Assembly: GCA_016188545.1 (NCBI GenBank)
Contig: JACPHO010000001.1
Location: 270,546 to 334,545, forward strand
DNA from: Candidatus Shapirobacteria bacterium
Lineage (GTDB): Bacteria > Patescibacteriota > Microgenomatia > UBA12405
Direction of reading: 5' to 3'
Length of the DNA: 64,000 nucleotides
The notes below the pieces were generated by a model, which had not been told where the DNA came from, did no database searches, and saw only the letters and a program-made list of their open reading frames with translations. Both the position numbers and the translations under genes were made by a program. Below are positions 26,877-39,237 of the stretch, piece after piece (the first letter of the stretch is position 1; each line of letters starts with the position of its first letter).

Positions 26877-28319
26877 ATGGCACTGTTTAGCAAACCTCGG
26901 GTTGTAATTTGGCCCAAAGATAATTCTGTAAACATTTATTTAGATCGCACCGAAAATAACATCTTTTCGCTTGACATAAATCTTTGGAAGAGTTGTTCCG
27001 AATCAGATCTCCAGGCATTAAGTACATTGTTTACCGAGCAGGGGATTGATACTGCCACTATTCTCATTCCCGACGATGTTGTTTTTACCAAATCATTTAT
27101 TTATGACTCCGAGATTACCGAAATCGATAAAAACGAAGTTATCGGTCTCGCCAAAAGTTTTATTAGCTTTAAGATCTCACCAGAATACATAAACTACGAT
27201 CTAGTTCAAAGCTCAGGCAAGACAATTATCCAGGCTCGTATTTTTGAAAAATCAAAAATCACCGCTCTTGAGGACAATCTCCGCTCTTTAAATCTAAAAA
27301 CATTTTCATTCGAATCTGTGTCCCAGTCTATTGCCAATATAATTTCCCAAAAATATACCGACCAGTATTTTCTAATTTTTCCTCTTGAGAACAGTGAATA
27401 TCTTTTAATGTTGGCCGCCAAGGATACAATTTACCTTACTTCGATTATCAAAGGTAAAGAGCTTGAGATCCAAAAACTAATAAACTACTCAAAACTATAT
27501 TTTCCGAATATTATCACTAAGATATTTGTTCCCACTGATTTGGCTGCAGACTTAATTGCTACAACCAAACTCGATAAGTCACCCTACAGTCAATCTTCTT
27601 TCGCCACTGAATATAAAAAAACCTCTAATTTACCTGTTCCTGTACTGGGTGTAATGGTTTCAAAATCGTTCCCACCTGGTATAATGAATACATCAGATAC
27701 TAATTCAAGTCAACCAAAAATGGAAAATAAAAAAAACATCCTCCCATTTATAGCTGTTTTTGTAGTTACCGCAGCGCTCGCCTCAATCATTATTTGGTTT
27801 GTATTGAATAAAAACTCCGAAAATACCCCAGAAACTCCTATTGTTGACACTACTCCGACTGTAGTTCAAGAAACGCCTACAGAGGCTCCTACTCCGACAA
27901 TCGCCCCTGTCAGTAAAACTCTCAAGCTCCAAGTCCTCAACGCTACCGATATTAATGGTCAGGCTGCCGTCCTTAAAGAAAAATTAACCAAACTAGGTTT
28001 CACCAGTATTGCCGTAGGTAACTCAAAAGACAAACTTACCGAGAACAAACTCCAGATAAAAGTTTCACAAGCTTCTGCATCTGCTTACTTTGTTCAAGAG
28101 TTAGCGGGATTCTTCGACGTAGTCCCCACTACCGATCTTCCTGAGACTTCCACCTACGACGCCGTATTTTCAATTGGTATTAAGCTTGAGGTTACTGGCG
28201 ATACTTCTATTGCTCCTTCTCTGAAGACTACCGTCACCCCAAGTGCCACTGCTACCAAATCAGCCTCAACTGCCACGCCGACAGCTAAAGCTAATCCTAC
28301 AGTAACCTCCACAGAGTAA
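26877..28319 (+). CDS. Bitopic membrane protein with a C-terminal LytR_C-like domain. The N-domain is possibly PilM-like. It also has a TM helix and a P/T-rich linker.
   Basis: TM ILPFIAVFVVTAALASIIIWFVL. C-terminus LKLQVLNATDINGQAAVLKEKLTKLGF…LQIKVSQAS resembles LytR_C. Confidence 0.45.
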   Translation: MALFSKPRVVIWPKDNSVNIYLDRTENNIFSLDINLWKSCSESDLQALSTLFTEQGIDTATILIPDDVVFTKSFIYDSEITEIDKNEVIGLAKSFISFKISPEYINYDLVQSSGKTIIQARIFEKSKITALEDNLRSLNLKTFSFESVSQSIANIISQKYTDQYFLIFPLENSEYLLMLAAKDTIYLTSIIKGKELEIQKLINYSKLYFPNIITKIFVPTDLAADLIATTKLDKSPYSQSSFATEYKKTSNLPVPVLGVMVSKSFPPGIMNTSDTNSSQPKMENKKNILPFIAVFVVTAALASIIIWFVLNKNSENTPETPIVDTTPTVVQETPTEAPTPTIAPVSKTLKLQVLNATDINGQAAVLKEKLTKLGFTSIAVGNSKDKLTENKLQIKVSQASASAYFVQELAGFFDVVPTTDLPETSTYDAVFSIGIKLEVTGDTSIAPSLKTTVTPSATATKSASTATPTAKANPTVTSTE

Positions 28320-28320
28320 A

Positions 28321-28890
28321 ATGCCTTATACCAGTATCACTGAGACAAAAATCAAAGGTGTCTTTACAATCCAACCCATGGTATTTGGCGACACTCGGGG
28401 TTGGTACCTTCCCGAGCTTGAAGTCTCCGAGCTCGAGGCAGCCATCGGCATCAAACTGGGAATTGCCCAAATTGCCTCATCTTTCAATACCAAGGCTGGT
28501 ATCTTGCGTGGTTTGCATTACCAGAACCCCAACACTCAAGGCAAGTTAGTTCAGGCAGTATCCGGTTCGGTACTTGATGTTGCCGTCGACGTTCGCAAAG
28601 ACTCACCAACGTTTGGGCAACACGTCGCAGTCAAGCTTACTTCACAAGAGCACAACCAGCTTTGGGTTCCCCCGGGCATGGCGCACGGCTATCTTGCGCT
28701 CGAAGAAAACACCCGTTTTTCTTATGTCGTTACTGATAGTGTCTACGACCCAAGTTCTGAAAAAGGAATCAACGCCTTCGATGTTTCCCTTGGAATAAAT
28801 TGGGGAATGACCCGAGAACTAATCGATCTCAAGGAACGCGATCTTCAGTTACCAAATCTCAAAGATATTTCCTTGGAAAATTTACTATGA
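28321..28890 (+). CDS. rmlC: dTDP-4-dehydrorhamnose 3,5-epimerase (cupin)
   Basis: GVFTIQPMVFGDTRGWY…LRGLHYQ…QGKLVQAVSGSVLDVAVDVR RmlC signature. Confidence 0.85.
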   Translation: MPYTSITETKIKGVFTIQPMVFGDTRGWYLPELEVSELEAAIGIKLGIAQIASSFNTKAGILRGLHYQNPNTQGKLVQAVSGSVLDVAVDVRKDSPTFGQHVAVKLTSQEHNQLWVPPGMAHGYLALEENTRFSYVVTDSVYDPSSEKGINAFDVSLGINWGMTRELIDLKERDLQLPNLKDISLENLL

Positions 28891-29753
28891 CCGAAGTTAT
28901 CACTACCGGTCTTAGTGGGTTGGTTGGTTCTCGTCTACTAGAGATCTTTCCTGATTACCGTCTCCAAGACCTCTCTCTCGATTCTGGTCATGACGTTTTA
29001 AAACCAAATACACTTGTCGATACATTTAGCCGGAGTCCTGCCAAAACAGTTCTTCACTTTGCGGCCTTTACGGACACCAATGCCGCGTGGGAACAAAGAG
29101 GCGACAAAAATGGTCTTTGTTATCAGTTAAACGTTATTGGGACTAAAAACATTGCCGACCTTTGTCGCCAGTACCACAAACATCTAATTCACATTTCAAC
29201 CGATTATGTCTTTGATGGTTCAAAAACAACCTCATATACCGAAACTGACACTCTCAACCCTCTCGATTGGTACGCTCAAACAAAATATGATGCCGAAAAA
29301 GTCGTCTCCCCAGAGTTCACTGTTATCCGTATAGCCTCGCCATATCGCGCCATATTTAACGCCAAAATTGATCTAGTCCGAAAAATAATTGGCAAATTAA
29401 AAAACAACGAAGTCTGCAAATTATTTGCAGATCAATATACCACCCCAACCTTCATCGACGACATTGCCATTGGTCTGGGAAAAGTTATTAACAACCCATT
29501 GCTGGGTATTTACCATCTGGTTGGTTCGTCATCACAATCTGTTTATGACATGGGGCAACAGATTGCCAATATTTTTGGTTTTGATCAAAAGTTAATTCAA
29601 CCCTCATCTCTCGCTGACTATCTCAAAACCGACAATGCCCGCCCCTATGCCCCAAACCTGTCACTTTCCAACCAAAAATTTATCGACAACTACAGCTTTA
29701 CCCCCAAAACTCTATCCGAAGGTTTGGCCGAAATGAAAAAACAGCTTACTTAG
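28887..29753 (+). CDS. rmlD: dTDP-4-dehydrorhamnose reductase
   Basis: MTEVITTGLSGLVGSRL N-terminal Rossmann motif. ATGA overlap with rmlC. The ORF-track start at 28800 is rejected. Confidence 0.8.
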   Translation: MTEVITTGLSGLVGSRLLEIFPDYRLQDLSLDSGHDVLKPNTLVDTFSRSPAKTVLHFAAFTDTNAAWEQRGDKNGLCYQLNVIGTKNIADLCRQYHKHLIHISTDYVFDGSKTTSYTETDTLNPLDWYAQTKYDAEKVVSPEFTVIRIASPYRAIFNAKIDLVRKIIGKLKNNEVCKLFADQYTTPTFIDDIAIGLGKVINNPLLGIYHLVGSSSQSVYDMGQQIANIFGFDQKLIQPSSLADYLKTDNARPYAPNLSLSNQKFIDNYSFTPKTLSEGLAEMKKQLT

Positions 29754-30279
29754 TTTTACACAAATCTACTAACGCTAGCCTATGATCCTCATTTCCAATT
29801 TCATCAAGCGGAATTTTGTCAAAATCAAAAAATGCAAAATCTCTAGATTCTTCTGATAATACAATATTTTGATTTTCAGGAAATATTGTTTTATACACTA
29901 TATGTAAAGTTGGATAATCAATATTTTGGAATTTATATAGACCTGGATAAGTTCCAAAATATTCAAACGATAGTACTTTCAGTCCTAGTTCTTCACAAAT
30001 TTCCCTTGAAAGTGCATCAGTTGCAGTTTCTCCTTTCTCCAAAAATCCAGCCGGAATACCCCACTTACCAATTCCTGGATCGTGATTTCTTTTGTCCAAC
30101 AAAACTTGGTTCTTTTTATTCAAAATGATTGCCCCAACGCTTGTTGAAACTGTTATATAAAATTTAAAATCGCATTTTAGACAAAGGTAATAGTTATCTC
30201 CTTTTTTGCTCAGCACTTCTCCGCAACTTGGGCAATATTTGTATTGATAATTGTTTGTCATCTGTCTTCTAGTCTCCAA
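29746..30279 (-). CDS. NUDIX hydrolase with N-terminal C4 zinc ribbon (NudC-like architecture)
   Basis: CPSCGE…CLKCDF, then Nudix box GFLEKGETATDALSREICEELGL. Confidence 0.7.
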   Translation of the reverse strand: METRRQMTNNYQYKYCPSCGEVLSKKGDNYYLCLKCDFKFYITVSTSVGAIILNKKNQVLLDKRNHDPGIGKWGIPAGFLEKGETATDALSREICEELGLKVLSFEYFGTYPGLYKFQNIDYPTLHIVYKTIFPENQNIVLSEESRDFAFFDFDKIPLDEIGNEDHRLALVDLCKTK

Positions 30280-30293
30280 CTATTAATTCTGTT

Positions 30294-31490
30294 TTATTCA
30301 TGACCAGATAATATCATTTTAGCCACTTTTTCTCCCTCTCTCACCGCAAAGTTTGTTCCCCTATCTTCTGGATAAATCATCGCAAAATTCGCCTGAAACA
30401 CATTTGTTTTTATTTTTGAATTTTGAATTTTGAATTTTCGTGTAACGACATGTTGGGCGTTCTTAAATTTCCATAGCCATTTGTCTACTACCATTTTTTT
30501 ATCAAAGTTCGGGAAAACTTTCTTCAGATAGTCAAACCATTCGTTAATAATCACACTATCCTTTTCAACAAAGTTCTTGTGCTCATGGGGAACATACACC
30601 CCCATGTAATAAACATTTTTATTTCCATATTGCTTTTTATCAACCAAGTTTGTGTGTTGAATAAAGGCCAGAAAAGGGGATCTATTGTCATTTATATTAT
30701 GCCAATAATACTTACTTAAGCTTTGTTTGGAGGTAAAAACCAAACACACCGCCCCCAAATAATCAACCTCTTTACTCGGCCCAGTCAGAAGTAATTTGTC
30801 AAATTTTTCCTGTCCTATTCTTAAATCATATTTCTTAAATCTTATTTCAGAATTCAAAGAAATCCGTCCACCATTTTCTCGAATTCGTCTTGCTAGTTCA
30901 TCAGCAATAATCCTAAAACCACCGTTAAAATATCCCAGTTTTCCCGAATTTCCTCGGGTATGAATCCTTGCCCATAGCCATGCCATCGACACATCTTTAT
31001 ATCTTTCATGAAATTTACCTTTCAAAAGTGGTTCCCAGATCACCTTGTAGGCTCTCTCCCCACACCACTTCTTCATCCATTGGTATGCCAATTGGTCGGC
31101 ATATTTTTCCCAGTTATTGTCTTTCTCCAAAAGAATTTTTACTACCCCTAGTCGTATTTTTGAAATAAGCGACAGTGGTTTGAACTTAAGAAGATCGACC
31201 GCGCCCATGAATGGATAGACAGTTCCATCATAATACAAACTTGTTTTTTCCGGATACCATTCCAATTTATCCATTAATCCTAGCTCTTTAGTTAGATCAA
31301 TAATGTGGCTATCAGTTGTAAATATATGATGGTAAGCCTTTTCCAAACTCGTTTTACCAATAGTGAATCCGCCCATTAGTCCACCAATATCACCACCCTT
31401 CTCGAATATTGTAACCAAATGTCCTTTTTGACTTAATCTGTACCCAGCTACTAATCCGGTCAACCCGGCTCCGATTATCGCAATTTTCAT
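30294..31490 (-). CDS. FAD-dependent oxidoreductase (amine-oxidase/UDP-galactopyranose-mutase-like fold)
   Basis: MKIAIIGAGLTGLVAGYRL…IFEKGGDIGGL dinucleotide-binding motif. Confidence 0.6.
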   Translation of the reverse strand: MKIAIIGAGLTGLVAGYRLSQKGHLVTIFEKGGDIGGLMGGFTIGKTSLEKAYHHIFTTDSHIIDLTKELGLMDKLEWYPEKTSLYYDGTVYPFMGAVDLLKFKPLSLISKIRLGVVKILLEKDNNWEKYADQLAYQWMKKWCGERAYKVIWEPLLKGKFHERYKDVSMAWLWARIHTRGNSGKLGYFNGGFRIIADELARRIRENGGRISLNSEIRFKKYDLRIGQEKFDKLLLTGPSKEVDYLGAVCLVFTSKQSLSKYYWHNINDNRSPFLAFIQHTNLVDKKQYGNKNVYYMGVYVPHEHKNFVEKDSVIINEWFDYLKKVFPNFDKKMVVDKWLWKFKNAQHVVTRKFKIQNSKIKTNVFQANFAMIYPEDRGTNFAVREGEKVAKMILSGHE

Positions 31491-31570
31491 GAATTAGTTT
31501 AGCAGACAAAATGTAATATCCAGTTTAAACTACTACTATGAGGAGAGGTAATAGACACATTATATTGCCT

Positions 31571-31584
31571 ATAATATTATAGTC
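31571..31584. promoter_or_regulatory. Perfect 14-bp palindrome CTATAATATTATAG in divergent promoter region
   Basis: Self-complementary. The TGCTATAAT extended -10 follows at 31585-31593. Confidence 0.35.
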
Positions 31585-31619
31585 TGCTATAATTAATACA
31601 TACTAGATAAGTATATTTT

Positions 31620-31976
31620 ATGTCCAATCGTCTCCAAACAAAACTCGAGATAAACTGTGTTCGGCTTTTAGTTGGTCGAGAGAACGAAACTCTGGGTATG
31701 AAAATATCTGATCTGCCCACCGGACACCGGGTTGATTTGCCTCAACTTGAAGCGGCTCACATCCTAGCACTTATCGGTCACAAAAGGGGGGAAATAGTCC
31801 TGTTACTTAATTCAAATGTGGGTTCTGTTACTGTAAGTGACTTACCCGACTCGAGAGTTGAGAAGATGGACACATTCCCATTTTTGGTCAAGGTAAGCAA
31901 AGTTAAACCAGGGGAAAATTTTAATGTTACGTTTGGAGCTCAAGTAGTAAACTTCGTCACTCAGGATGTTATCTGA
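31620..31976 (+). CDS. Hypothetical protein (118 aa)
   Basis: ORF only, followed by a terminator. No recognisable motif. Confidence 0.3.
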   Translation: MSNRLQTKLEINCVRLLVGRENETLGMKISDLPTGHRVDLPQLEAAHILALIGHKRGEIVLLLNSNVGSVTVSDLPDSRVEKMDTFPFLVKVSKVKPGENFNVTFGAQVVNFVTQDVI

Positions 31977-32004
31977 GTTTTGTGATATCATATTTCACCT
32001 TATT

Positions 32005-32027
32005 ACGGGTTTCGACCCGTTTTTTAA
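32005..32027 (+). terminator. Rho-independent terminator
   Basis: ACGGGT-TTCG-ACCCGT followed by TTTTTT. Confidence 0.55.
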
Positions 32028-32044
32028 TGTTATTATTTACTAAT

Positions 32045-32079
32045 TAATTCTTAATTCCTAATTCTTAATTCCTAATTTC
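32045..32079 (+). repeat. Tandem heptamer tract (AATTCYT)n immediately upstream of fusA
   Basis: aattcttaattcctaattcttaattcctaatttct. Same element family at 42884-42921, 43587-43624 and 58250-58275. Confidence 0.55.
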
Positions 32080-32083
32080 TACT

Positions 32084-34189
32084 ATGGCCGACGCTATTAA
32101 GCTCTCCAAAAACCGCGATGTCAGCATGGATCATGTCCGTAACATCGGTATTATTGCCCATATTGACGGAGGTAAGACCACCACTACCGAACGTCTACTT
32201 TTCTATACAGGAAAAATTCACAAAATTGGTTCTGTTGATGCCGGTACTACTACTACCGACACCATGGTGCAGGAACGGGAGAGGGGAATTACTATCCAGT
32301 CAGCTTGCGTCACCACTTTTTGGCATGACTACCGCATCAACATTATCGATACTCCCGGCCATGTCGATTTTACTGCCGAGGTAGAACGTTCCCTACGTGT
32401 CCTCGACGGTGCTATCATGATTTTCGATGGCAATGCTGGGGTTCAAGCTCAATCCGAAACTGTTTGGCGTCAGGCCGACAAATACGGGGTGCCCCGTTTG
32501 GCTTTTGTCAACAAAATGGACAAAGTTGGTGCATCTTTCCAAGGTACTCTCGACTCCATCACTCAAAAACTTCACGCCCCAATTGTCGCCATGGTCTTAC
32601 CTCTTGGTGAAGAACATGCCCATGTTGGTGTCATCGACCTGATGGAAATGAAGATGATTGTCTACGATAAAGATCCTGAAGGTATGGAGTTCACCGTCAA
32701 AGATGTCACTCCCGATTATCTCGATGCTGCCAAAGCTGCTCGGGCCAAGATGGTTGAAAAAATCGCCGGAGAGGACGAACACCTTATGGAGAAATACCTT
32801 AGTGATGAGGAAATATCCATTCCAGAGCTTAAAAAAGCCCTTCGTAAAGCCACTATCGATCGTAAATTATTCCCAGTATTCTGTGGTGCTGCTTGGAGAA
32901 ACAAAGGAATCCATCCAATTTTGGATGCAATTGTTGACTATCTGCCTTCCCCCACTGACCTTCCCCCGATAGAAGGGTTTGATATCAATACTCAAGAAAA
33001 AATTACCAGAAAACCGATCAAGTCAGAACCACTATCAGCCATGCTTTTTAAAGTCCAGTCCGATGCTCATGTCGGAACACTTTCCTACGTCCGTGTCTAT
33101 TCCGGTACTATCAGATCAGGTTCTGATGTCTACAATGCTACCAAGCAAAAGACCGAAAGAATCGGTCGTTTGTTGCTAATGCATGCTGACAAAAGAGAGG
33201 GGATCGAAGAGGGTTTTGCTGGAGAAATAATTGCCTGTATCGGTCTAAAAGAGTCCACCACCGGTGATACACTTTGTGACAAAAGTGCCCCAATTTCTCT
33301 ATCTCCAATTCAATTCTCCGAACCAGTTATCTCCCTTTCAATCGAACCTGAAACTGCCGATGATCAGGAGAAAATGGGTGCAGCCCTCAACCGTCTTGCT
33401 ATCGAGGATCCCACCTTCAAAGTTTCCTACAACCACGAAACCGGTCAGACCATTATCGCCGGTATGGGCGAACTTTACCTCGATATTATCGTCGATCGTC
33501 TTCGCCGAGAATTCAACGTCGGCGTCAAGACCGGTGCCCCCCAAGTTGCTTATCGCGAAACTATTTCCGAAAATGCCGAAGGTGAGGGTAAATACATTCA
33601 TCAGTCCGGTGGTCATGGTCAGTATGGTCATTGTAAAGTTAAGGTCGAACCAAAAAACCGTGGCGAAGGTATCGAGTTCGTCAACGGTATCAAGGGTGGG
33701 GTCATTCCTGCCAACTTCGTCCCCGCCATCGAAAAGGGTGTTCGCGAAGCCCTTGCCAAGGGTATCATCGCTGGCTATCCCTGTACCGATATCAAAGTCA
33801 CTGTCTATGATGGTTCCTACCACGATGTTGACTCATCAGAAGCCGCTTTCAAACTAGCTGGTTCTTATGCCATCAAAGACGCCTTCCAAAAAGCTCGACC
33901 ACTTGTACTAGAACCCATCATGAAGATGGAGGTCGCCACCCCATCCGAATTCCAAGGAACAGTTATTGGAGATCTTGCCGCCCGACGTGGTCAGGTTAGT
34001 GGAACCACCGATTCTATGGGTTTTACTACCATTATTGCCTTAATACCATTGGAAATGGTGCGAGGTTACGCTACTGTCATCCGTTCCCTCACTCAAGGAC
34101 GTGGTTCATTCTATATGGAACCGGCACAATACGATCCAGTACCCCGTGACGTTCAGGAGAAGTTGACCATCAAACCTGGAAAAGAATAG
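32084..34189 (+). CDS. fusA: Elongation factor G
   Basis: AHIDGGKTTTTE G1 and DTPGHVDF G3 motifs. 701 aa. Confidence 0.95.
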   Translation: MADAIKLSKNRDVSMDHVRNIGIIAHIDGGKTTTTERLLFYTGKIHKIGSVDAGTTTTDTMVQERERGITIQSACVTTFWHDYRINIIDTPGHVDFTAEVERSLRVLDGAIMIFDGNAGVQAQSETVWRQADKYGVPRLAFVNKMDKVGASFQGTLDSITQKLHAPIVAMVLPLGEEHAHVGVIDLMEMKMIVYDKDPEGMEFTVKDVTPDYLDAAKAARAKMVEKIAGEDEHLMEKYLSDEEISIPELKKALRKATIDRKLFPVFCGAAWRNKGIHPILDAIVDYLPSPTDLPPIEGFDINTQEKITRKPIKSEPLSAMLFKVQSDAHVGTLSYVRVYSGTIRSGSDVYNATKQKTERIGRLLLMHADKREGIEEGFAGEIIACIGLKESTTGDTLCDKSAPISLSPIQFSEPVISLSIEPETADDQEKMGAALNRLAIEDPTFKVSYNHETGQTIIAGMGELYLDIIVDRLRREFNVGVKTGAPQVAYRETISENAEGEGKYIHQSGGHGQYGHCKVKVEPKNRGEGIEFVNGIKGGVIPANFVPAIEKGVREALAKGIIAGYPCTDIKVTVYDGSYHDVDSSEAAFKLAGSYAIKDAFQKARPLVLEPIMKMEVATPSEFQGTVIGDLAARRGQVSGTTDSMGFTTIIALIPLEMVRGYATVIRSLTQGRGSFYMEPAQYDPVPRDVQEKLTIKPGKE

Positions 34190-34289
34190 GAATTTACCTA
34201 GAGCTTTCCGATGAAGACATGGTCATCTCTCACTGAATCTTTGGGCAGTTTGTGTTACAATTAATACTATTAATTAAGCGTTTAAAAAT

Positions 34290-34817
34290 ATGGCAAACAA
34301 CAGCGACAGAAGGATAGATAGACCAACTGATGTTTTGTATGTAATTAATGAAATAAACAGTGAACATGACGTGCCACCATCATATGTCTTAGCCCAAGAG
34401 TTAATAAATAAATATCCCAATTCACTCACGGTTATTGATCGGGATATAATTCCCCTTATCCTAAGTCGATCAGGTGACCCCAAATCACGAACTATATACA
34501 TCAATGATGTTGGCATTTTTATTTTAACCAGCAACCCTACTTTAGATGCCTCTGAGCAAGCGTGGAAAATGTTTAATGAAAACAATGCTATTGACCACAA
34601 ACTAGTATTAGTATCCAACAATAATGATGAATATATTCCTACAGGTGAATTTACCCAACAAACTGGGATTATTTCCATTACTCACTTAAATCTAGATCAA
34701 ATAAAAAATAAGCCAAGATCAAAAGACGCTAAGCTAATCAACGACATTCTTTCACAGGCTGATCGAAGAGGTAGGATGGCATTGCCTCCGTCGAGTAATT
34801 ACCTATCTCAAACATAG
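34290..34817 (+). CDS. Hypothetical protein (175 aa)
   Basis: ORF only. First gene of the fusA-tuf insertion. Confidence 0.35.
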   Translation: MANNSDRRIDRPTDVLYVINEINSEHDVPPSYVLAQELINKYPNSLTVIDRDIIPLILSRSGDPKSRTIYINDVGIFILTSNPTLDASEQAWKMFNENNAIDHKLVLVSNNNDEYIPTGEFTQQTGIISITHLNLDQIKNKPRSKDAKLINDILSQADRRGRMALPPSSNYLSQT

Positions 34818-34869
34818 CTCAGAATCCAATTTTGATGTAATATGTGTTATTAATCACAAAAAAAATAAA

Positions 34870-35382
34870 ATGATGGTTCTGGACATCGAGACAATATCCG
34901 CCACCTTAGGAAAATCAGTTGAAAAAGATAGGACTACCCTTGAAGGTCTGGTTATGTCTACAATGCTTGAATTATCAACACAATATCCAAAAGGCCTAGG
35001 TTTGGCTGCCGATGGTGACAATTTCTTGCTAGTGTCTCCACACGTTGATTCTCATGGTGAAGTTGTTTTAGCTACTGAAACTGGTGTCTATATTCTCGAA
35101 CAAGATAAATTAGATGCAAAAGCCCACAATCTCGACAGGATTGTTGGTGCCATCAGTGGTGCTATTACCACCGCCAAACAACTTGTCGCCAAAATTCCTC
35201 AAGACGACTACGAATCCCACCAAGATTTAAAAGATAATGGTTTATTTATCAACGCAGTAACACAAGTAAACATTGCTGATAAAGAATCACCAAATTTCCA
35301 AAAAATGGTTGAACTTGTTAAAGACATGTCAAAATTCAGAGCCTCAATTGACTCTGCCAGGCTCGCCACTACTGAGAAATAA
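34870..35382 (+). CDS. Hypothetical protein, paralog of N-half of 36905-37864
   Basis: About 50% identity with the 36905 product over about 150 aa. Example: LELSTQYPKGLGLAADGDNFLLVSPHV versus LELSTEYPKGLGLSGTEENFLLVSPHV. Confidence 0.45.
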   Translation: MMVLDIETISATLGKSVEKDRTTLEGLVMSTMLELSTQYPKGLGLAADGDNFLLVSPHVDSHGEVVLATETGVYILEQDKLDAKAHNLDRIVGAISGAITTAKQLVAKIPQDDYESHQDLKDNGLFINAVTQVNIADKESPNFQKMVELVKDMSKFRASIDSARLATTEK

Positions 35383-35419
35383 TTAAAAAATAAATCCTCT
35401 AATGGTCCGGTAGTTTTTA

Positions 35420-35851
35420 TTGACAATCACTTCACAAAGTCCTATAATACATCAAATGAAAACAAATCAAACTGAAAAAATCAGTGCACTTTTGGAACAT
35501 CAGAAATCTCTTGTCGAACAGTCCACAATTGTCGACTTTAAGTTAGCTTTGGAAAAATGGAAAATACTGATTGAAGTTGCTCGTGAATCAGAAGCTATTC
35601 ACAATAGCGGTGTCTGGATGACAAAAAAAGACGGTACTTTTGTCCATTTTGAATCAAACCATGGTTGCTTTATAAATGTAACTCAACATCCAGAACTTAA
35701 ACACCAATCATACAACTTCGCTCAAGGTGCCACAGGTGAACACTTTGTATTTGAATTCAACCTAGAACATACAGAAGTTGTCAGAGTTGAGTCCCATAAC
35801 ACAAAAAAAATGCAAAAAAAAATATCAGCTGGGAGGCTATACTGGTGGTGA
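35420..35851 (+). CDS. Hypothetical protein (143 aa). A8/A9 homopolymer runs near the 3' end.
   Basis: ORF only. Poly-A tracts at 35803-35822. Confidence 0.3.
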   Translation: MTITSQSPIIHQMKTNQTEKISALLEHQKSLVEQSTIVDFKLALEKWKILIEVARESEAIHNSGVWMTKKDGTFVHFESNHGCFINVTQHPELKHQSYNFAQGATGEHFVFEFNLEHTEVVRVESHNTKKMQKKISAGRLYWW

Positions 35852-35999
35852 CCATTTTAGGTTCATAACTTTAAAATCAACACAGACTATTGTTGAGGGT
35901 TTTAAAAGGGGATTTCCTGTGGAGGAATTTAAATCTTTGGTTGATAACATTGGGTCTCCAGAAAGTAATTAGGTAGCAAATCATATTCAGAAAAACTGT

Positions 36000-36013
36000 C
36001 CATCAAACCAGGT
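36000..36013 (+). repeat. 14-bp direct repeat CCATCAAACCAGGT (left copy)
   Basis: Exact copy also at 36715-36728. The pair brackets the RelB/RelE-like cassette. Confidence 0.5.
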
Positions 36014-36130
36014 GGTAAAAATAAATGTCATTTCCGCAATTCTTTTTGTCATTCCCATGAAGGCGGGAATCCAGATCTAAATCATCATCATTTTCCCCAG
36101 TTTTGAGCCTGTCGAAGTGGCGATAGTGTC

Positions 36131-36158
36131 TTGACAAATAATATCAAAATAGTATAAT
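36131..36158 (+). promoter_or_regulatory. Consensus sigma70 promoter TTGACA-16 bp-TATAAT. The antitoxin ATG lies 6 nt downstream, so the transcript is probably leaderless.
   Basis: -35 at 36131-36136, -10 at 36153-36158, ATG at 36165. Confidence 0.5.
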
Positions 36159-36164
36159 CATATT

Positions 36165-36434
36165 ATGAAAACGACTATCCAAGTCCCCGTCGACAAAAAT
36201 TTAAAAACAATTTACGAAAATAACGCTGATAAGTTAGGCTATTCTTCACTGCAAGAATATATTCGTGTGTTTCTGAAACAAAACTTAGGCCAGGACAATG
36301 TTGAATACTTAACTCCACAAGAAGAAAAAAAGCTTCTTCAAATGTCTCGCGCCTCCGATCGGGAAATTAAAAAAGGTAATTTCATCAAAAGTAGTAATAT
36401 TGACGAATTAATGGCATACTTAAACAGTGCCTGA
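36165..36434 (+). CDS. RelB/DinJ-family (ribbon-helix-helix) antitoxin
   Basis: N-terminal beta strand TIQVPVD followed by helices. 89 aa. 8-nt overlap with the downstream toxin. Confidence 0.55.
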   Translation: MKTTIQVPVDKNLKTIYENNADKLGYSSLQEYIRVFLKQNLGQDNVEYLTPQEEKKLLQMSRASDREIKKGNFIKSSNIDELMAYLNSA

Positions 36435-36699
36435 AATTATTTTTGATCGTTTATTTCGTCGTCATTTTGATTCACGTCAATTTTCCAAAAAAATTACAGC
36501 AAAATTTAATGAAAGAGTAAAAGTTTTCTCCCGTAATCCAGAATCAATCCTGCTTAATGACCATCCACTTAGAGGTAACCTAAGTGGTTATAGAGCATTT
36601 TCTATTACCAAAGATATCCGCGTGGTATATCAAATAATTGATGACAATCTTGTTCGTTTTCTAAATATCGGCACCCACAACCAGGTTTATGGAAAATAG
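36427..36699 (+). CDS. RelE/ParE-family type II toxin
   Basis: …LNDHPLRGNLSGYRAFSITKDIRVVYQIIDDNLVRFLNIGTHNQVYGK matches the RelE/ParE C-terminal pattern. GTG start. Confidence 0.65.
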   Translation: MPEIIFDRLFRRHFDSRQFSKKITAKFNERVKVFSRNPESILLNDHPLRGNLSGYRAFSITKDIRVVYQIIDDNLVRFLNIGTHNQVYGK

Positions 36700-36714
36700 A
36701 CCGAGAAAAGTCGC

Positions 36715-36728
36715 CCATCAAACCAGGT
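36715..36728 (+). repeat. 14-bp direct repeat CCATCAAACCAGGT (right copy)
   Basis: Exact match to 36000-36013. Lies 15 nt after the toxin stop. Confidence 0.5.
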
Positions 36729-36790
36729 AAGGAATAACCGCCAAAAACGTCATCGCGAGAAACGAAGTGACGAAGCAATCAGTGTATTAA

Positions 36791-36815
36791 GCCCCGGCTC
36801 CGGCCGGGGTTTTTG
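36791..36815 (+). terminator. Rho-independent terminator
   Basis: CCCCGGC-TCCG-GCCGGGG followed by TTTTT. Confidence 0.7.
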
Positions 36816-36904
36816 TGATATATTCTACTTATTACGGTTAAAGTATAAAATTTCAAACCGATAAATTGCTAGAAATATATTTTATATAAATTAATTATTC
36901 CAAT

Positions 36905-37864
36905 ATGCTAAATCTAGTCCCCGAAGAAGTGTCAGCTGTTATAAGTAGTTCAATAGAAAAAAATGTATCACCACAAGAAACAAAGGTGATGTCAAGGGTT
37001 CTTGAACTTTCGACTGAGTACCCAAAAGGATTGGGCTTGTCTGGAACTGAAGAAAATTTTTTACTCGTATCACCTCATGTGGGCGTAGACGGGAAATCTG
37101 TCCTGGCTACAGAAACAGGTATTTATATTATTAAACAGCAGAAATTAGAAGCAGGAGCAGGTAACAATGATCGAATGGTAAATGTGATTAGTGGTGCTGT
37201 CGAAGCGACTAAGAAACTCGTTTCTGCTATTCCTACTGATGATTTTGAGACAAAATTTCCACCCAAAGTAAATGGGCTTTTTGTCGAGTCAATAACCCAA
37301 GTCAATTTAGACGATCCAGATTCTGATACACATCAAGAGATGGTCGGGCTAATTAAAGAGATGTCACGATTTAGAGCGTCTGCTGATGCCAGGAGAAATG
37401 ATAATCAAACTGAAGAATCTGTGCGAACCACGAGTCCAGTGGAAGCTCTTGCAAAGGTTTTTATAGATACCTATGAAGATAGAGATGATGTTGCTGTCAA
37501 TAATTACTCTTGGGTTGCTAGTACTGACAGGTGGCATCCTGGACTATTTGAAATATTCGGAGATCACAATAAGCAACTAACTAATGCGATAAAAACCATT
37601 GACGCTGATCAAGATGGAAATCGTTTGTGGATTGTTGGCGGTGTCATGGCGGTTGTTAATTATCCAGATGAAATTTCTAAGTCTGGTGATGCTGGACTTA
37701 ATTTATATCAGGCTTTAAACGAAGCACGGCGCTCTAGCGATAAACGCTATGAAGGTGATATGAATGGGAGAAAGTTGGTGATCAACATTTGCCAAGTGGA
37801 ACAACCAGATCGAGTTCCAGAAAAACTAATCGAATCATTGTTGAGCAGTAGAAGCGAGTCATAG
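36905..37864 (+). CDS. Hypothetical protein (319 aa). The N-half is paralogous to 34870-35382. It also has a unique C-terminal ~160-aa domain.
   Basis: See paralog alignment. No recognisable motif. Confidence 0.45.
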   Translation: MLNLVPEEVSAVISSSIEKNVSPQETKVMSRVLELSTEYPKGLGLSGTEENFLLVSPHVGVDGKSVLATETGIYIIKQQKLEAGAGNNDRMVNVISGAVEATKKLVSAIPTDDFETKFPPKVNGLFVESITQVNLDDPDSDTHQEMVGLIKEMSRFRASADARRNDNQTEESVRTTSPVEALAKVFIDTYEDRDDVAVNNYSWVASTDRWHPGLFEIFGDHNKQLTNAIKTIDADQDGNRLWIVGGVMAVVNYPDEISKSGDAGLNLYQALNEARRSSDKRYEGDMNGRKLVINICQVEQPDRVPEKLIESLLSSRSES

Positions 37865-37955
37865 TGACATCTTTGCAATGAATGTGAATTTGTATCATTA
37901 AATAATTAAGAAATTAAGTGAAGCTCTAACTTAGAATTTTGAACATATTTCATTC

Positions 37956-37984
37956 TTGCAAACCCAAAACCTTACTGCTACAAT
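37956..37984 (+). promoter_or_regulatory. Sigma70-like promoter TTGCAA-17 bp-TACAAT upstream of tuf
   Basis: Read directly. Lies 80 nt upstream of the tuf ATG. Confidence 0.4.
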
Positions 37985-38064
37985 CTTAAAGCGTTTTTCG
38001 CTATACTTAATAGTTATAAATTCTTCCGACTTTGTCGTCGGATAATAAAATCAAATCAAAATAT

Positions 38065-39237
38065 ATGGCTGATGCATATAAAAGAACCAAACCCCATGTC
38101 AACGTCGGTACTATTGGTCACGTCGATCATGGTAAAACTACTTTAACCGCCGCAATTTCCAAAGTTCAAGGAAGTGCCAAATCTTACGCAGATATTGCTA
38201 AGGGTGGTACCGTCCGCGATGCTTCCAAGATTGTTACTATCGCTATCTCCCACATCGAATACGAAACCGATGCCCGTCATTATGCTCATATCGACTGTCC
38301 GGGACATGCCGACTATGTCAAGAACATGATTACCGGTGCTGCCCAAATGGATGGCGCTATTCTCGTTGTTTCTGCACCAGACGGTCCAATGCCTCAAACC
38401 AGAGAGCACGTTCTACTTGCCAAGCAAGTCAACGTTCCCTCTCTGGTCGTTTTCTTAAACAAAGTTGATTTGGTCACCGACCCAGAGTTCCTCGACCTAG
38501 TCGAAATGGAAATCCGTGATCTTCTTACCAAATACGGCTACCCAGGTGATACCACTCCAATCGTTCGTGGATCTGCTCTAAAGGCACTCAATGGCGAGGC
38601 TGAAGGTGTCGAATCTATCAAGAAATTGATGGAGGCACTTGATTCCTACATTCCCGAGCCCAAGCGCGAACTTGATCAGCCTTTCCTCATGCCTATTGAG
38701 GATGTCTTCTCCATCAAGGGTCGCGGTACTGTTGCTACCGGAAGAATCGAAAGGGGAGTTATCAAAGTCAACGAAGAAATCGAAATCGTCGGTCTTCGTG
38801 ATACCAAAAAAGCTGTTGTTACTGGTGTCGAAATGTTCCACAAATCACTTGACCAAGGTCAAGCTGGTGACAATGTCGGTATCCTGCTCCGCGGAGTTGA
38901 AAAAGACGATATCGAAAGGGGACAAGTGTTAGCCAAAATTGGCTCTATCACCCCTCACACCGAGTTCAAGGCTGAAGTTCTACTTCTCAAAAAAGAAGAA
39001 GGTGGTCGTCATACTCCAATCTTCAATGGTTATCGTCCCCAAGTCTTTTTGAAGACTACTGACGTTACCGGAGATCTTACTCTTCCAGAAGGTATGGAAA
39101 TGGTCATGCCAGGTGATAATGCAAATGTCGTCATCAAGCTGATTAAAGCTGTAGCCATGGAAAAGGGTCAACGCTTCGCTATCCGCGAAGGTGGATTGAC
39201 AGTTGGTGCCGGTGCTATCACCGAGATCATCAAATAA
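38065..39237 (+). CDS. tuf: Elongation factor Tu
   Basis: [31 protein letters not shown] motifs. ATG at 38065 preferred over the ORF-track TTG at 38032. Confidence 0.95.

Follow-up and report, generated by a model that had tools for sequence, protein, structure and literature searches.

A probable variable cassette slot, with repeated fusA 3' ends, between fusA and tuf of a Candidatus Shapirobacteria bacterium

The genes encoding the elongation factors EF-G (fusA) and EF-Tu (tuf) lie 3,875 nt apart in a Candidatus Shapirobacteria bacterium (assembly GCA_016188545.1), of which we have analysed a 64,000-nt stretch of contig JACPHO010000001.1 (positions 270,546 to 334,545 of the forward strand; hereafter the window). 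This gap is probably a lineage-specific variable cassette slot, situated between the fusA stop codon and a tuf promoter that pre-existed its present contents. A repeat search of the window revealed that the final ~35-40 nt of fusA are present three times in direct orientation, and these copies delimit two cassettes ahead of a distal unit whose components are shared with the closest relatives. A preliminary description, made from the sequence of the stretch, had placed fusA and tuf 3.9 kb apart with six genes in between, and this is indeed what the gap holds: six plus-strand open reading frames (ORFs), named O1 to O6 (Table 1), densely packed with short spacers. Its further proposal of a 3.9-kb accessory insertion stands only in part, since the interval is accessory and variable, but it is not one insertion and its distal third is ancestral. 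Two assemblies, made independently from separate sequencing runs, agree with the window at 100% identity throughout the locus.

Repeated fusA ends and the conserved distal unit

The relatives compared comprise ~25 Shapirobacteria/Microgenomates loci retrieved by an EF-G genome scan and designated here by L numbers. In 12 out of 25 loci fusA and tuf are ~100-270 bp apart; the remaining loci have spacers of 1.0-2.6 kb with unrelated contents, among them ORFans, a Wzx-like flippase on the opposite strand and a DUF1861 protein, the spacer of the window being the longest of all. The closest sub-clade is formed by L003/L004, L005/L086 and L087, with EF-G 94-98% identical (94-96% between the window and L004/L005) and an identical tuf promoter, and its order is always fusA, terminator, one or more genes, tuf promoter and tuf.

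The 13-nt core of the repeated fusA end, CCATCAAACCWGG, occurs three times in the 64 kb versus 0.19 occurrences expected, a number that none of 100 shuffles reached, and it is single-copy in L004, L005 and L085. Copy 1, the one in use, encodes the same amino acids as the fusA ends of the relatives with other codons and another stop (CCT GGA ... TAG vs CCA GGT ... TAA). The two remaining copies are displaced relics. Within relic 3 the left arm is more diverged (6/10) than the core and right arm (22/23), and this copy runs on into the ancestral terminator, interrupted by the 49-nt hairpin element Y alone. Both cassettes and both relics are absent from L004, L005, L085 and L087.

Among Shapirobacteria (L006-L031) the last ~10 codons of EF-G vary in length and sequence, ending for example in ...TIKTSTK, ...TIKTDGKKE or ...TTKLNGGKN, each followed by the stop. 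The C-terminal tail of EF-G, the proposed site of recombination here, is itself poorly constrained.

Table 1. Features of the fusA-tuf interval, with positions in the window
Feature	Position	Strand	Remarks
fusA (EF-G)	32084-34189	+	701 aa; Pfam EF-G domains; intact C-terminus ...EKLTIKPGKE, stop
fusA-end copy 1, in use	34151-34189	+	...EKLTIKPGKE, stop
Cassette A	34190-35982	+	O1, O2, O3; delimited by fusA-end copies
O1	34290-34817	+	175 aa; distant member of the acidic slot family; cassette A
O2 (HYV64_01820)	34870-35382	+	170 aa; family N-domain alone; cassette A
O3 promoter, sigma-70 consensus	35420-35448	+	perfect; O3 ATG 7 nt past the -10 box
O3 (HYV64_01825)	35456-35851	+	131 aa; cassette A
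O3b	35778-35972	+	64 aa; overlaps O3
Relic 2, displaced fusA 3' end	35983-36025	+	EKLSIKPGGK...; 84% over 44 nt to the L005 fusA end, E 9e-7
Cassette B	36026-36701	+	O4 (putative antitoxin) and O5 (toxin family); delimited by fusA-end copies
Hairpin element X	36030-36078	+	GTCATTCCCATGAAGGCGGGAATCCAG type, GTCATTCCC..GGGAATCCAG; directly after relic 2
Cassette B promoter, sigma-70 consensus	36131-36158	+	perfect; O4 ATG 6 nt past the -10 box
O4	36165-36434	+	89 aa; putative ribbon-helix-helix (RelB/DinJ-like) antitoxin
O5	36427-36699	+	90 aa; RelE/YafQ-family toxin, predicted mRNA interferase
Ancestral unit	36702-38064	+	relic 3, terminator, O6, tuf promoter
Relic 3, ancestral fusA 3' end	36702-36737	+	EKSPIKPGKE, stop; 22/23 nt to the L005 fusA end
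Hairpin element Y	36738-36786	+	GTCATCGCGAG..GACGAAGCAATCAG type; directly after relic 3; 49 nt
fusA intrinsic terminator and conserved trailer	36787-36848	+	92% to L005 12123-12184; 86% to L004 2771-2814
O6 (HYV64_01840)	36905-37864	+	319 aa; resident family member; N-domain and C-domain
tuf promoter and 5' untranslated region with hairpin	37933-38064	+	TTGCAA-17-TACAAT at 37956-37984; 96.6% to L005
tuf (EF-Tu)	38065-39237	+	390 aa; ATG 38065 chosen by gene callers and relatives; ORF open from TTG 38032

The preliminary description had attributed a strong terminator to the insertion. A terminator does exist, made of a 10-bp G+C stem (36788-36807) and a U run extending to 36812 (fold z -2.6), but it is fusA's own, shifted 2.6 kb downstream, because relic 3 leads into sequence matching the post-fusA DNA of L005 and L004, where the counterparts of terminator and trailer stand directly 3' of fusA. 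Similarly, tuf had been supposed to have acquired a promoter of its own; the promoter is present, but its motif was found in all relatives examined. It is exact in L003-L005, L086 and L087, and the motif TTGCAAA-N17-TACAAT followed by AAAGC(N)TTTT precedes tuf in all Shapirobacteria spacers examined, short ones included. Since it is also found where fusA and tuf are adjacent, the tuf promoter is older than the insertions and was not gained through them. The 5' untranslated region of tuf (37985-38064, ~80 nt) carries a conserved hairpin, CCGACTTTGTCGTCGG, and is near-identical in L004, L005 and L087. Synonymous divergence to L005, given as the proportion of synonymous differences (pS), is far lower in tuf (0.32) than in fusA (0.57).

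The short hairpin elements X and Y are each single-copy in the window and absent from L004, L005 and L087. Element Y stands in place of ~18 nt present in relatives, and a Y-like element was found in L028 (1691-1722) between the rpsG stop and its terminator. We take this type of sequence to be widespread and a source of spurious small ORFs, such as that at 36003-36137 on the minus strand (...LDSRLHGNDK...). No Rfam RNA family was detected within the fusA-tuf gap.

With respect to base composition, the G+C content of the gap (GC) is below that of fusA and tuf. Its value at third codon positions (GC3) is 0.22-0.36 versus 0.29-0.40 in the other genes, in a window with an overall GC of 0.405. It is fusA and tuf that behave as GC and GC3 outliers, the gap falling within the range of the ordinary genes of the window. 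The comparison of GC and codon usage proposed in the preliminary description thus gives no clear indication of foreign DNA.

Genes carried by the slot

Cassette B contains the toxin-antitoxin (TA) pair anticipated earlier. O5 exceeds the curated cut-offs of both the RelE/StbE family TIGR02385 (42.7 bits, cut-off 27.9) and the YafQ family PF15738 (37.3 bits, cut-off 30), and among PDB sequences it matches E. coli YoeB (expect value, E, 3e-6) and YafQ (E 6e-6). The catalytic residues of YafQ are H50, H63, D67, H87 and F91; when aligned to the YafQ structure 4ml2, O5 keeps the DH of the DHPL motif, the D of the (P/K)D pair and the GTH...(F to Y) motif, and has a Ser at the position matching His63. 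Its partner O4 had no match in Pfam and is a putative ribbon-helix-helix (RHH) antitoxin of RelB/DinJ type, as suggested by weak matches to TIGR02384 RelB_DinJ (E 0.06, over positions 1-83 of 85) and to the RHH domain of NikR (E 0.02). The statement that none of the six proteins shows an assignable motif is therefore wrong for O5 and probably for O4. Both genes overlap by 8 nt and are served by a single promoter (36131-36158); cassette B is, as far as can be predicted, a self-contained type II TA module of the ordinary RelE/YafQ type. Toxins of this family cleave mRNA in a ribosome-dependent manner and are neutralised by an unstable RHH antitoxin, which in addition represses its own promoter. 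It can be predicted with reasonable confidence that O5 is likewise a ribosome-dependent mRNA interferase and O4 an autorepressing antitoxin. The pair would operate as an addiction or stress module and would also stabilise the array.

The promoter of this pair and that of O3 bear out the report of a consensus promoter in the interval: they are the only perfect TTGACA-N16-18-TATAAT sites in the 64-kb window, versus 0.05 expected. The start of O3 had been placed at 35420, which is the TTG of the TTGACA -35 box; the likely start is the ATG at 35456. Given that the ATGs lie only 7 and 6 nt past the respective -10 boxes, the O3 mRNA is probably leaderless or nearly so, and the same arrangement suggests a leaderless or nearly leaderless mRNA for the TA operon.

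O1, O2 and O6 belong to an orphan family specific to this slot, which confirms and extends the duplicated gene family first noticed in the interval. O2 is 54% identical to residues 1-164 of O6 (E 6e-59). O1 is a third, distant member, recognised by BLASTP against O6 (E 0.003) and by a leave-one-out hidden Markov model (HMM; E 1.6e-7), and is alone in its 50% cluster (P0008). O6 itself is recovered by leave-one-out HMM with E 4e-8. An ortholog of O6, 64% identical, adjoins tuf in L003/L004, the homolog of L005 (L005_318) is 27% identical to O6 and has leave-one-out support, and the member of L087 (L087_367, 367 aa) is more divergent still (leave-one-out E 6e-7). Relatives thus do have genes of this family in the same position; they are unannotated hypotheticals, not housekeeping genes. 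A sequence search of 5.8 billion proteins retrieved only 7 that belong to the family, and a profile search of 1.84 billion representatives likewise only 7 clusters. A local HMM search of all ORFs from 88 sources found members confined to the fusA-tuf slot, and each member with a readable context sits there.

Other slot proteins, of 166 aa (P0004/6/7) and 167 aa (P0005/9/11), were considered as members and rejected (leave-one-out E 0.15-21); they share with the family the slot and a (Y/F)P motif only. In L085, the ~740 nt at 680-1420, between the gene for the 166-aa protein and tuf, contain a short ORF alone (959-1111, ...DESGVFIVTQ...), which may be a decayed family gene in view of a weak likeness to a conserved strand (HMM E 0.038).

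The ratio of non-synonymous to synonymous substitution (dN/dS) between O6 and its ortholog is 0.17, as compared to 0.025 for fusA; the family consists of real genes under purifying selection whose protein evolution is ~ten times faster than that of EF-G. Its validated members have isoelectric points of 4.7-5.3, net charges of -4 to -25 and no hydrophobic or transmembrane segment. No match to O1, O2 or O6 was found in Pfam, NCBIfam, PHROGs, PADLOC, PDB sequences (profile search included) or known folds. The AlphaFold2 model of O2 (predicted local distance difference test 70.8; predicted template modelling score 0.71) had no fold match, a tblastn search of phages with O6 found nothing, and a genome scan with O6 found no relatives. 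As to the idea of a defence or accessory module, the interval is accessory, and PADLOC gave 0 matches to known defence systems at E <= 1 for the six proteins.

Because of its exclusivity to a hot spot, fast evolution, acidity and stacking of paralogs, a conflict-type role (as immunity protein, antitoxin-like protein or anti-phage binder) fits the family better, and a housekeeping one would be less likely. The location of the slot between two highly conserved genes would provide ideal anchors for recombination between lineages. The family might be linked specifically to EF-G or EF-Tu, but nothing supports this. To go further, and propose both that the fusA 3' end of these bacteria is a dedicated capture site, at which small cassettes with promoters of their own join the fusA transcription unit in the absence of a linked integrase, and that O1, O2 and O6 represent a new class of fast-evolving proteins acting on EF-G/EF-Tu as immunity or decoy factors, is a speculation to which we give low probability. 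If true, action on EF-G/EF-Tu would account for the confinement of the family between fusA and tuf, and the targets of such decoy or immunity factors would be toxins or phage proteins attacking elongation factors.

The last gene of cassette A, O3, is an ORFan. A merged O3 query matched itself only among 5.8e9 proteins, and no Pfam, NCBIfam, PHROG, PADLOC or fold match was found. Near its end there are two poly-A runs (A8 at 35803-35810 and A9 at 35814-35822), with O3b in the +1 frame; the loss of 1 nt in the A9 run would fuse O3 and O3b into a 171-aa ORF. The sequence of O3/O3b is identical in the two independent assemblies, and the disruption could reflect a pseudogene, phase variation or transcriptional slippage.

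Proposed origin and competing readings

The ancestral state of the sub-clade would have been fusA, its terminator, one fast-evolving acidic gene of the orphan family (here O6), the tuf promoter and tuf. Two cassettes would then have entered ahead of this ancestral part by recombination within the last ~35-40 nt of fusA, each entry rebuilding the EF-G C-terminus and shoving the prior 3' end downstream as a relic. If it was the functional fusA end that served as the site each time, cassette B with its TA pair would probably be the older of the two and cassette A the younger. As both cassettes lie 5' of the displaced fusA terminator, they would now be part of the fusA transcription unit. O2 and O6 have diverged to saturation at synonymous sites (pS 0.82), whereas the non-coding relics and the fusA ends of the relatives still agree at 84-96%, which makes the relics far younger than the O2/O6 split; therefore, cassette A would have been imported, not duplicated in place, and its slot-family genes (O1, O2) and the ORFan O3 would have reached the fusA 3' end from a different lineage. 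Since two independent junctions within the same ~40 nt restore the same C-terminal peptide, a homology- or site-directed recombination of Campbell type is more likely than random insertion, the candidates being RecA, whose gene is present in the window, and a site-specific recombinase acting in trans or since lost. A recombination tract within fusA was also considered and discarded, identity being flat at ~83-85% with no gradient toward the 3' end.

Several observations weigh against this history. The relics are short (35-44 nt), and their pattern was found in one genome only. Neither exact look-ups of fusA and tuf nor a metagenome scan with the tuf promoter retrieved a strain without cassette A or B. 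Composition gives the cassettes no foreign mark, and a recombinase domain was detected neither in O1-O6 nor in 16 further ORFs from the window. L004 has extra genes 3' of the terminator, and the fusA end is thus not the sole route of entry. Finally, O1 has no ortholog and owes its coding status to family membership, while O3, also without orthologs, owes it to its ORF and promoter alone.

It is somewhat unlikely, although worth serious consideration, that the cassettes are remnants of integrase-driven elements that used the fusA 3' end as attachment site, the integrase being lost or supplied in trans. This opposes RecA-mediated Campbell recombination on enzymology only. Direct repeats of 35-44 nt of a gene 3' end with a restored frame, as seen at fusA, are the classic signature of integrase-driven elements; in addition, the contrast between the arms of relic 3 is that expected of an attR hybrid, and the cassettes bear strong promoters of their own. 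On the other hand, the lack of recombinase domains applies to the gap and to 10 candidate ORFs elsewhere in the window, the cassettes are tiny (1.8 and 0.7 kb) and, with recA in the window, homologous recombination could occasionally make do with ~40 nt.

A local tandem duplication of a unit formed by the fusA 3' end, terminator and family gene, followed by divergence and later insertion of the TA pair, would account for the presence of three family paralogs alongside three fusA-end copies in matching order, a topology that would be expected if the duplicated unit began ~40 nt ahead of the stop. We nonetheless regard it as improbable: O2 and O6 share only 54% of their amino acids and are saturated at synonymous sites, whereas the unconstrained relics have kept their likeness to the relatives' fusA ends. 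Moreover, the terminator occurs in the last unit only, unit 2 consists of the TA pair without a family gene, and relatives have one fusA end.

It is still less probable that most ORFs of the gap are spurious or decaying, the gap being no more than junk DNA that remained after former insertions. The break of O3/O3b at a poly-A run, the absence of any homolog of O3 and of an ortholog of O1, and the apparently degraded remnant as the only family trace in L085 would agree with such decay, but they are opposed by the dN/dS of O6, by leave-one-out profiles that recognise the family in four lineages, by an O5 above curated cut-offs with its DHPL and GTH..Y motifs aligned to YafQ, by consensus promoters placed exactly at start codons, and by the filling of the plus strand with ORFs. 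Finally, that a single foreign genomic or defence island entered as one block between adjacent fusA and tuf, carrying a promoter and terminator of its own, so that tuf had to evolve a promoter, is hardly credible, because the lack of the gap in about half of the relatives, its TA module and uncharacterised genes and its GC below that of fusA and tuf are outweighed by the synteny of O6, terminator and tuf promoter in L004, L005 and L087, the inner fusA-end relics dividing the region into three units, the greater age of the tuf promoter, the null PADLOC result and a GC/GC3 ordinary for the window, from which fusA and tuf deviate instead.

Known systems, genomic surroundings and implications

The O4/O5 pair resembles RelBE/DinJ-YafQ modules in the family thresholds and motifs of O5, in the upstream RHH-like antitoxin overlapping by 8 nt and in having its own promoter; it differs in the weak likeness of O4 to RelB/DinJ, the Ser of O5 in place of His63, an apparently leaderless promoter and its location in the str operon of a Candidate Phyla Radiation (CPR) bacterium. 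As for the array as a whole, islands at gene 3' ends are exemplified by those of Prochlorococcus, including tycheposons, with repeated tRNA 3' ends, and by streptococcal integrative and conjugative or mobilizable elements at rpsI, rplL and guaA. The slot shares with them the serial direct repeats of the last ~40 nt of the target gene with restoration of the frame, a stacked and variable cargo, and the absence of the cassettes from the same site in close relatives. In contrast to such islands, no integrase or mobility gene was found here, the cassettes measure 0.7-1.8 kb and the target is fusA, which to our knowledge has not been reported as an attachment site, a literature search having given nothing relevant.

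Chromosomal integron arrays likewise consist of small, mostly ORFan cassettes on the same strand, with RelE-type TA modules that have their own promoter and possibly act as stabilisers. Unlike them, the slot has only two added cassettes, whose borders are pieces of fusA and not imperfect palindromes, and no IntI, attI or attC was found, no dedicated attC model having been run. In cdiA/rhs arrays of orphan toxin tips and immunity genes, recombination brings new modules into the 3' end of a conserved gene, and the older ends are shifted downstream. This mode of entry and displacement is paralleled here, as is the accumulation of divergent paralogs of small acidic proteins, but the upstream gene encodes EF-G and no toxin, the displaced pieces are of only ~12 codons and nothing identifies the family as immunity proteins. 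The array of fusA-end relics is thus a new version of the known pattern of integration at gene 3' ends, without a visible integrase. No report on a fusA-tuf hot spot or on TA systems of Shapirobacteria was found in the literature.

The str operon of the window is also broken upstream, by 5.3 kb between rpsG and fusA (26877-32083) that encode a LytR_C-domain protein, rmlC, rmlD, a NUDIX hydrolase and an amine-oxidase-like flavoprotein (both on the minus strand) and a 118-aa ORF. A multi-kb rpsG-fusA gap occurs in every Shapirobacteria locus where rpsG was seen, and not in other Microgenomates (L030-L032). The small gene just 5' of fusA is swapped as well (window 31620-31976; L004 202-546; L005 9518-9862): in L004 and L005 this place is taken by a common 114-aa protein (71% identity), in the window by the unrelated 118-aa ORF, without Pfam match. 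The flanks of this ORF are conserved, with the amine-oxidase gene on one side and TGTGATATCAT...hairpin upstream of fusA on the other.

Our findings suggest that a hot spot of gene turnover can lie even within the core str/S10 translation operon of a CPR bacterium with a reduced genome, and the fusA-end relics would constitute a sequence-level record of cassette stacking in it. They also delimit a very small orphan family that sits between two elongation-factor genes wherever its context can be read. If this family binds EF-G/EF-Tu or takes part in conflict systems, the locus would offer a compact entry to the accessory biology of uncultivated Patescibacteria; otherwise, it would represent a neat case of a variable islet with a TA module.

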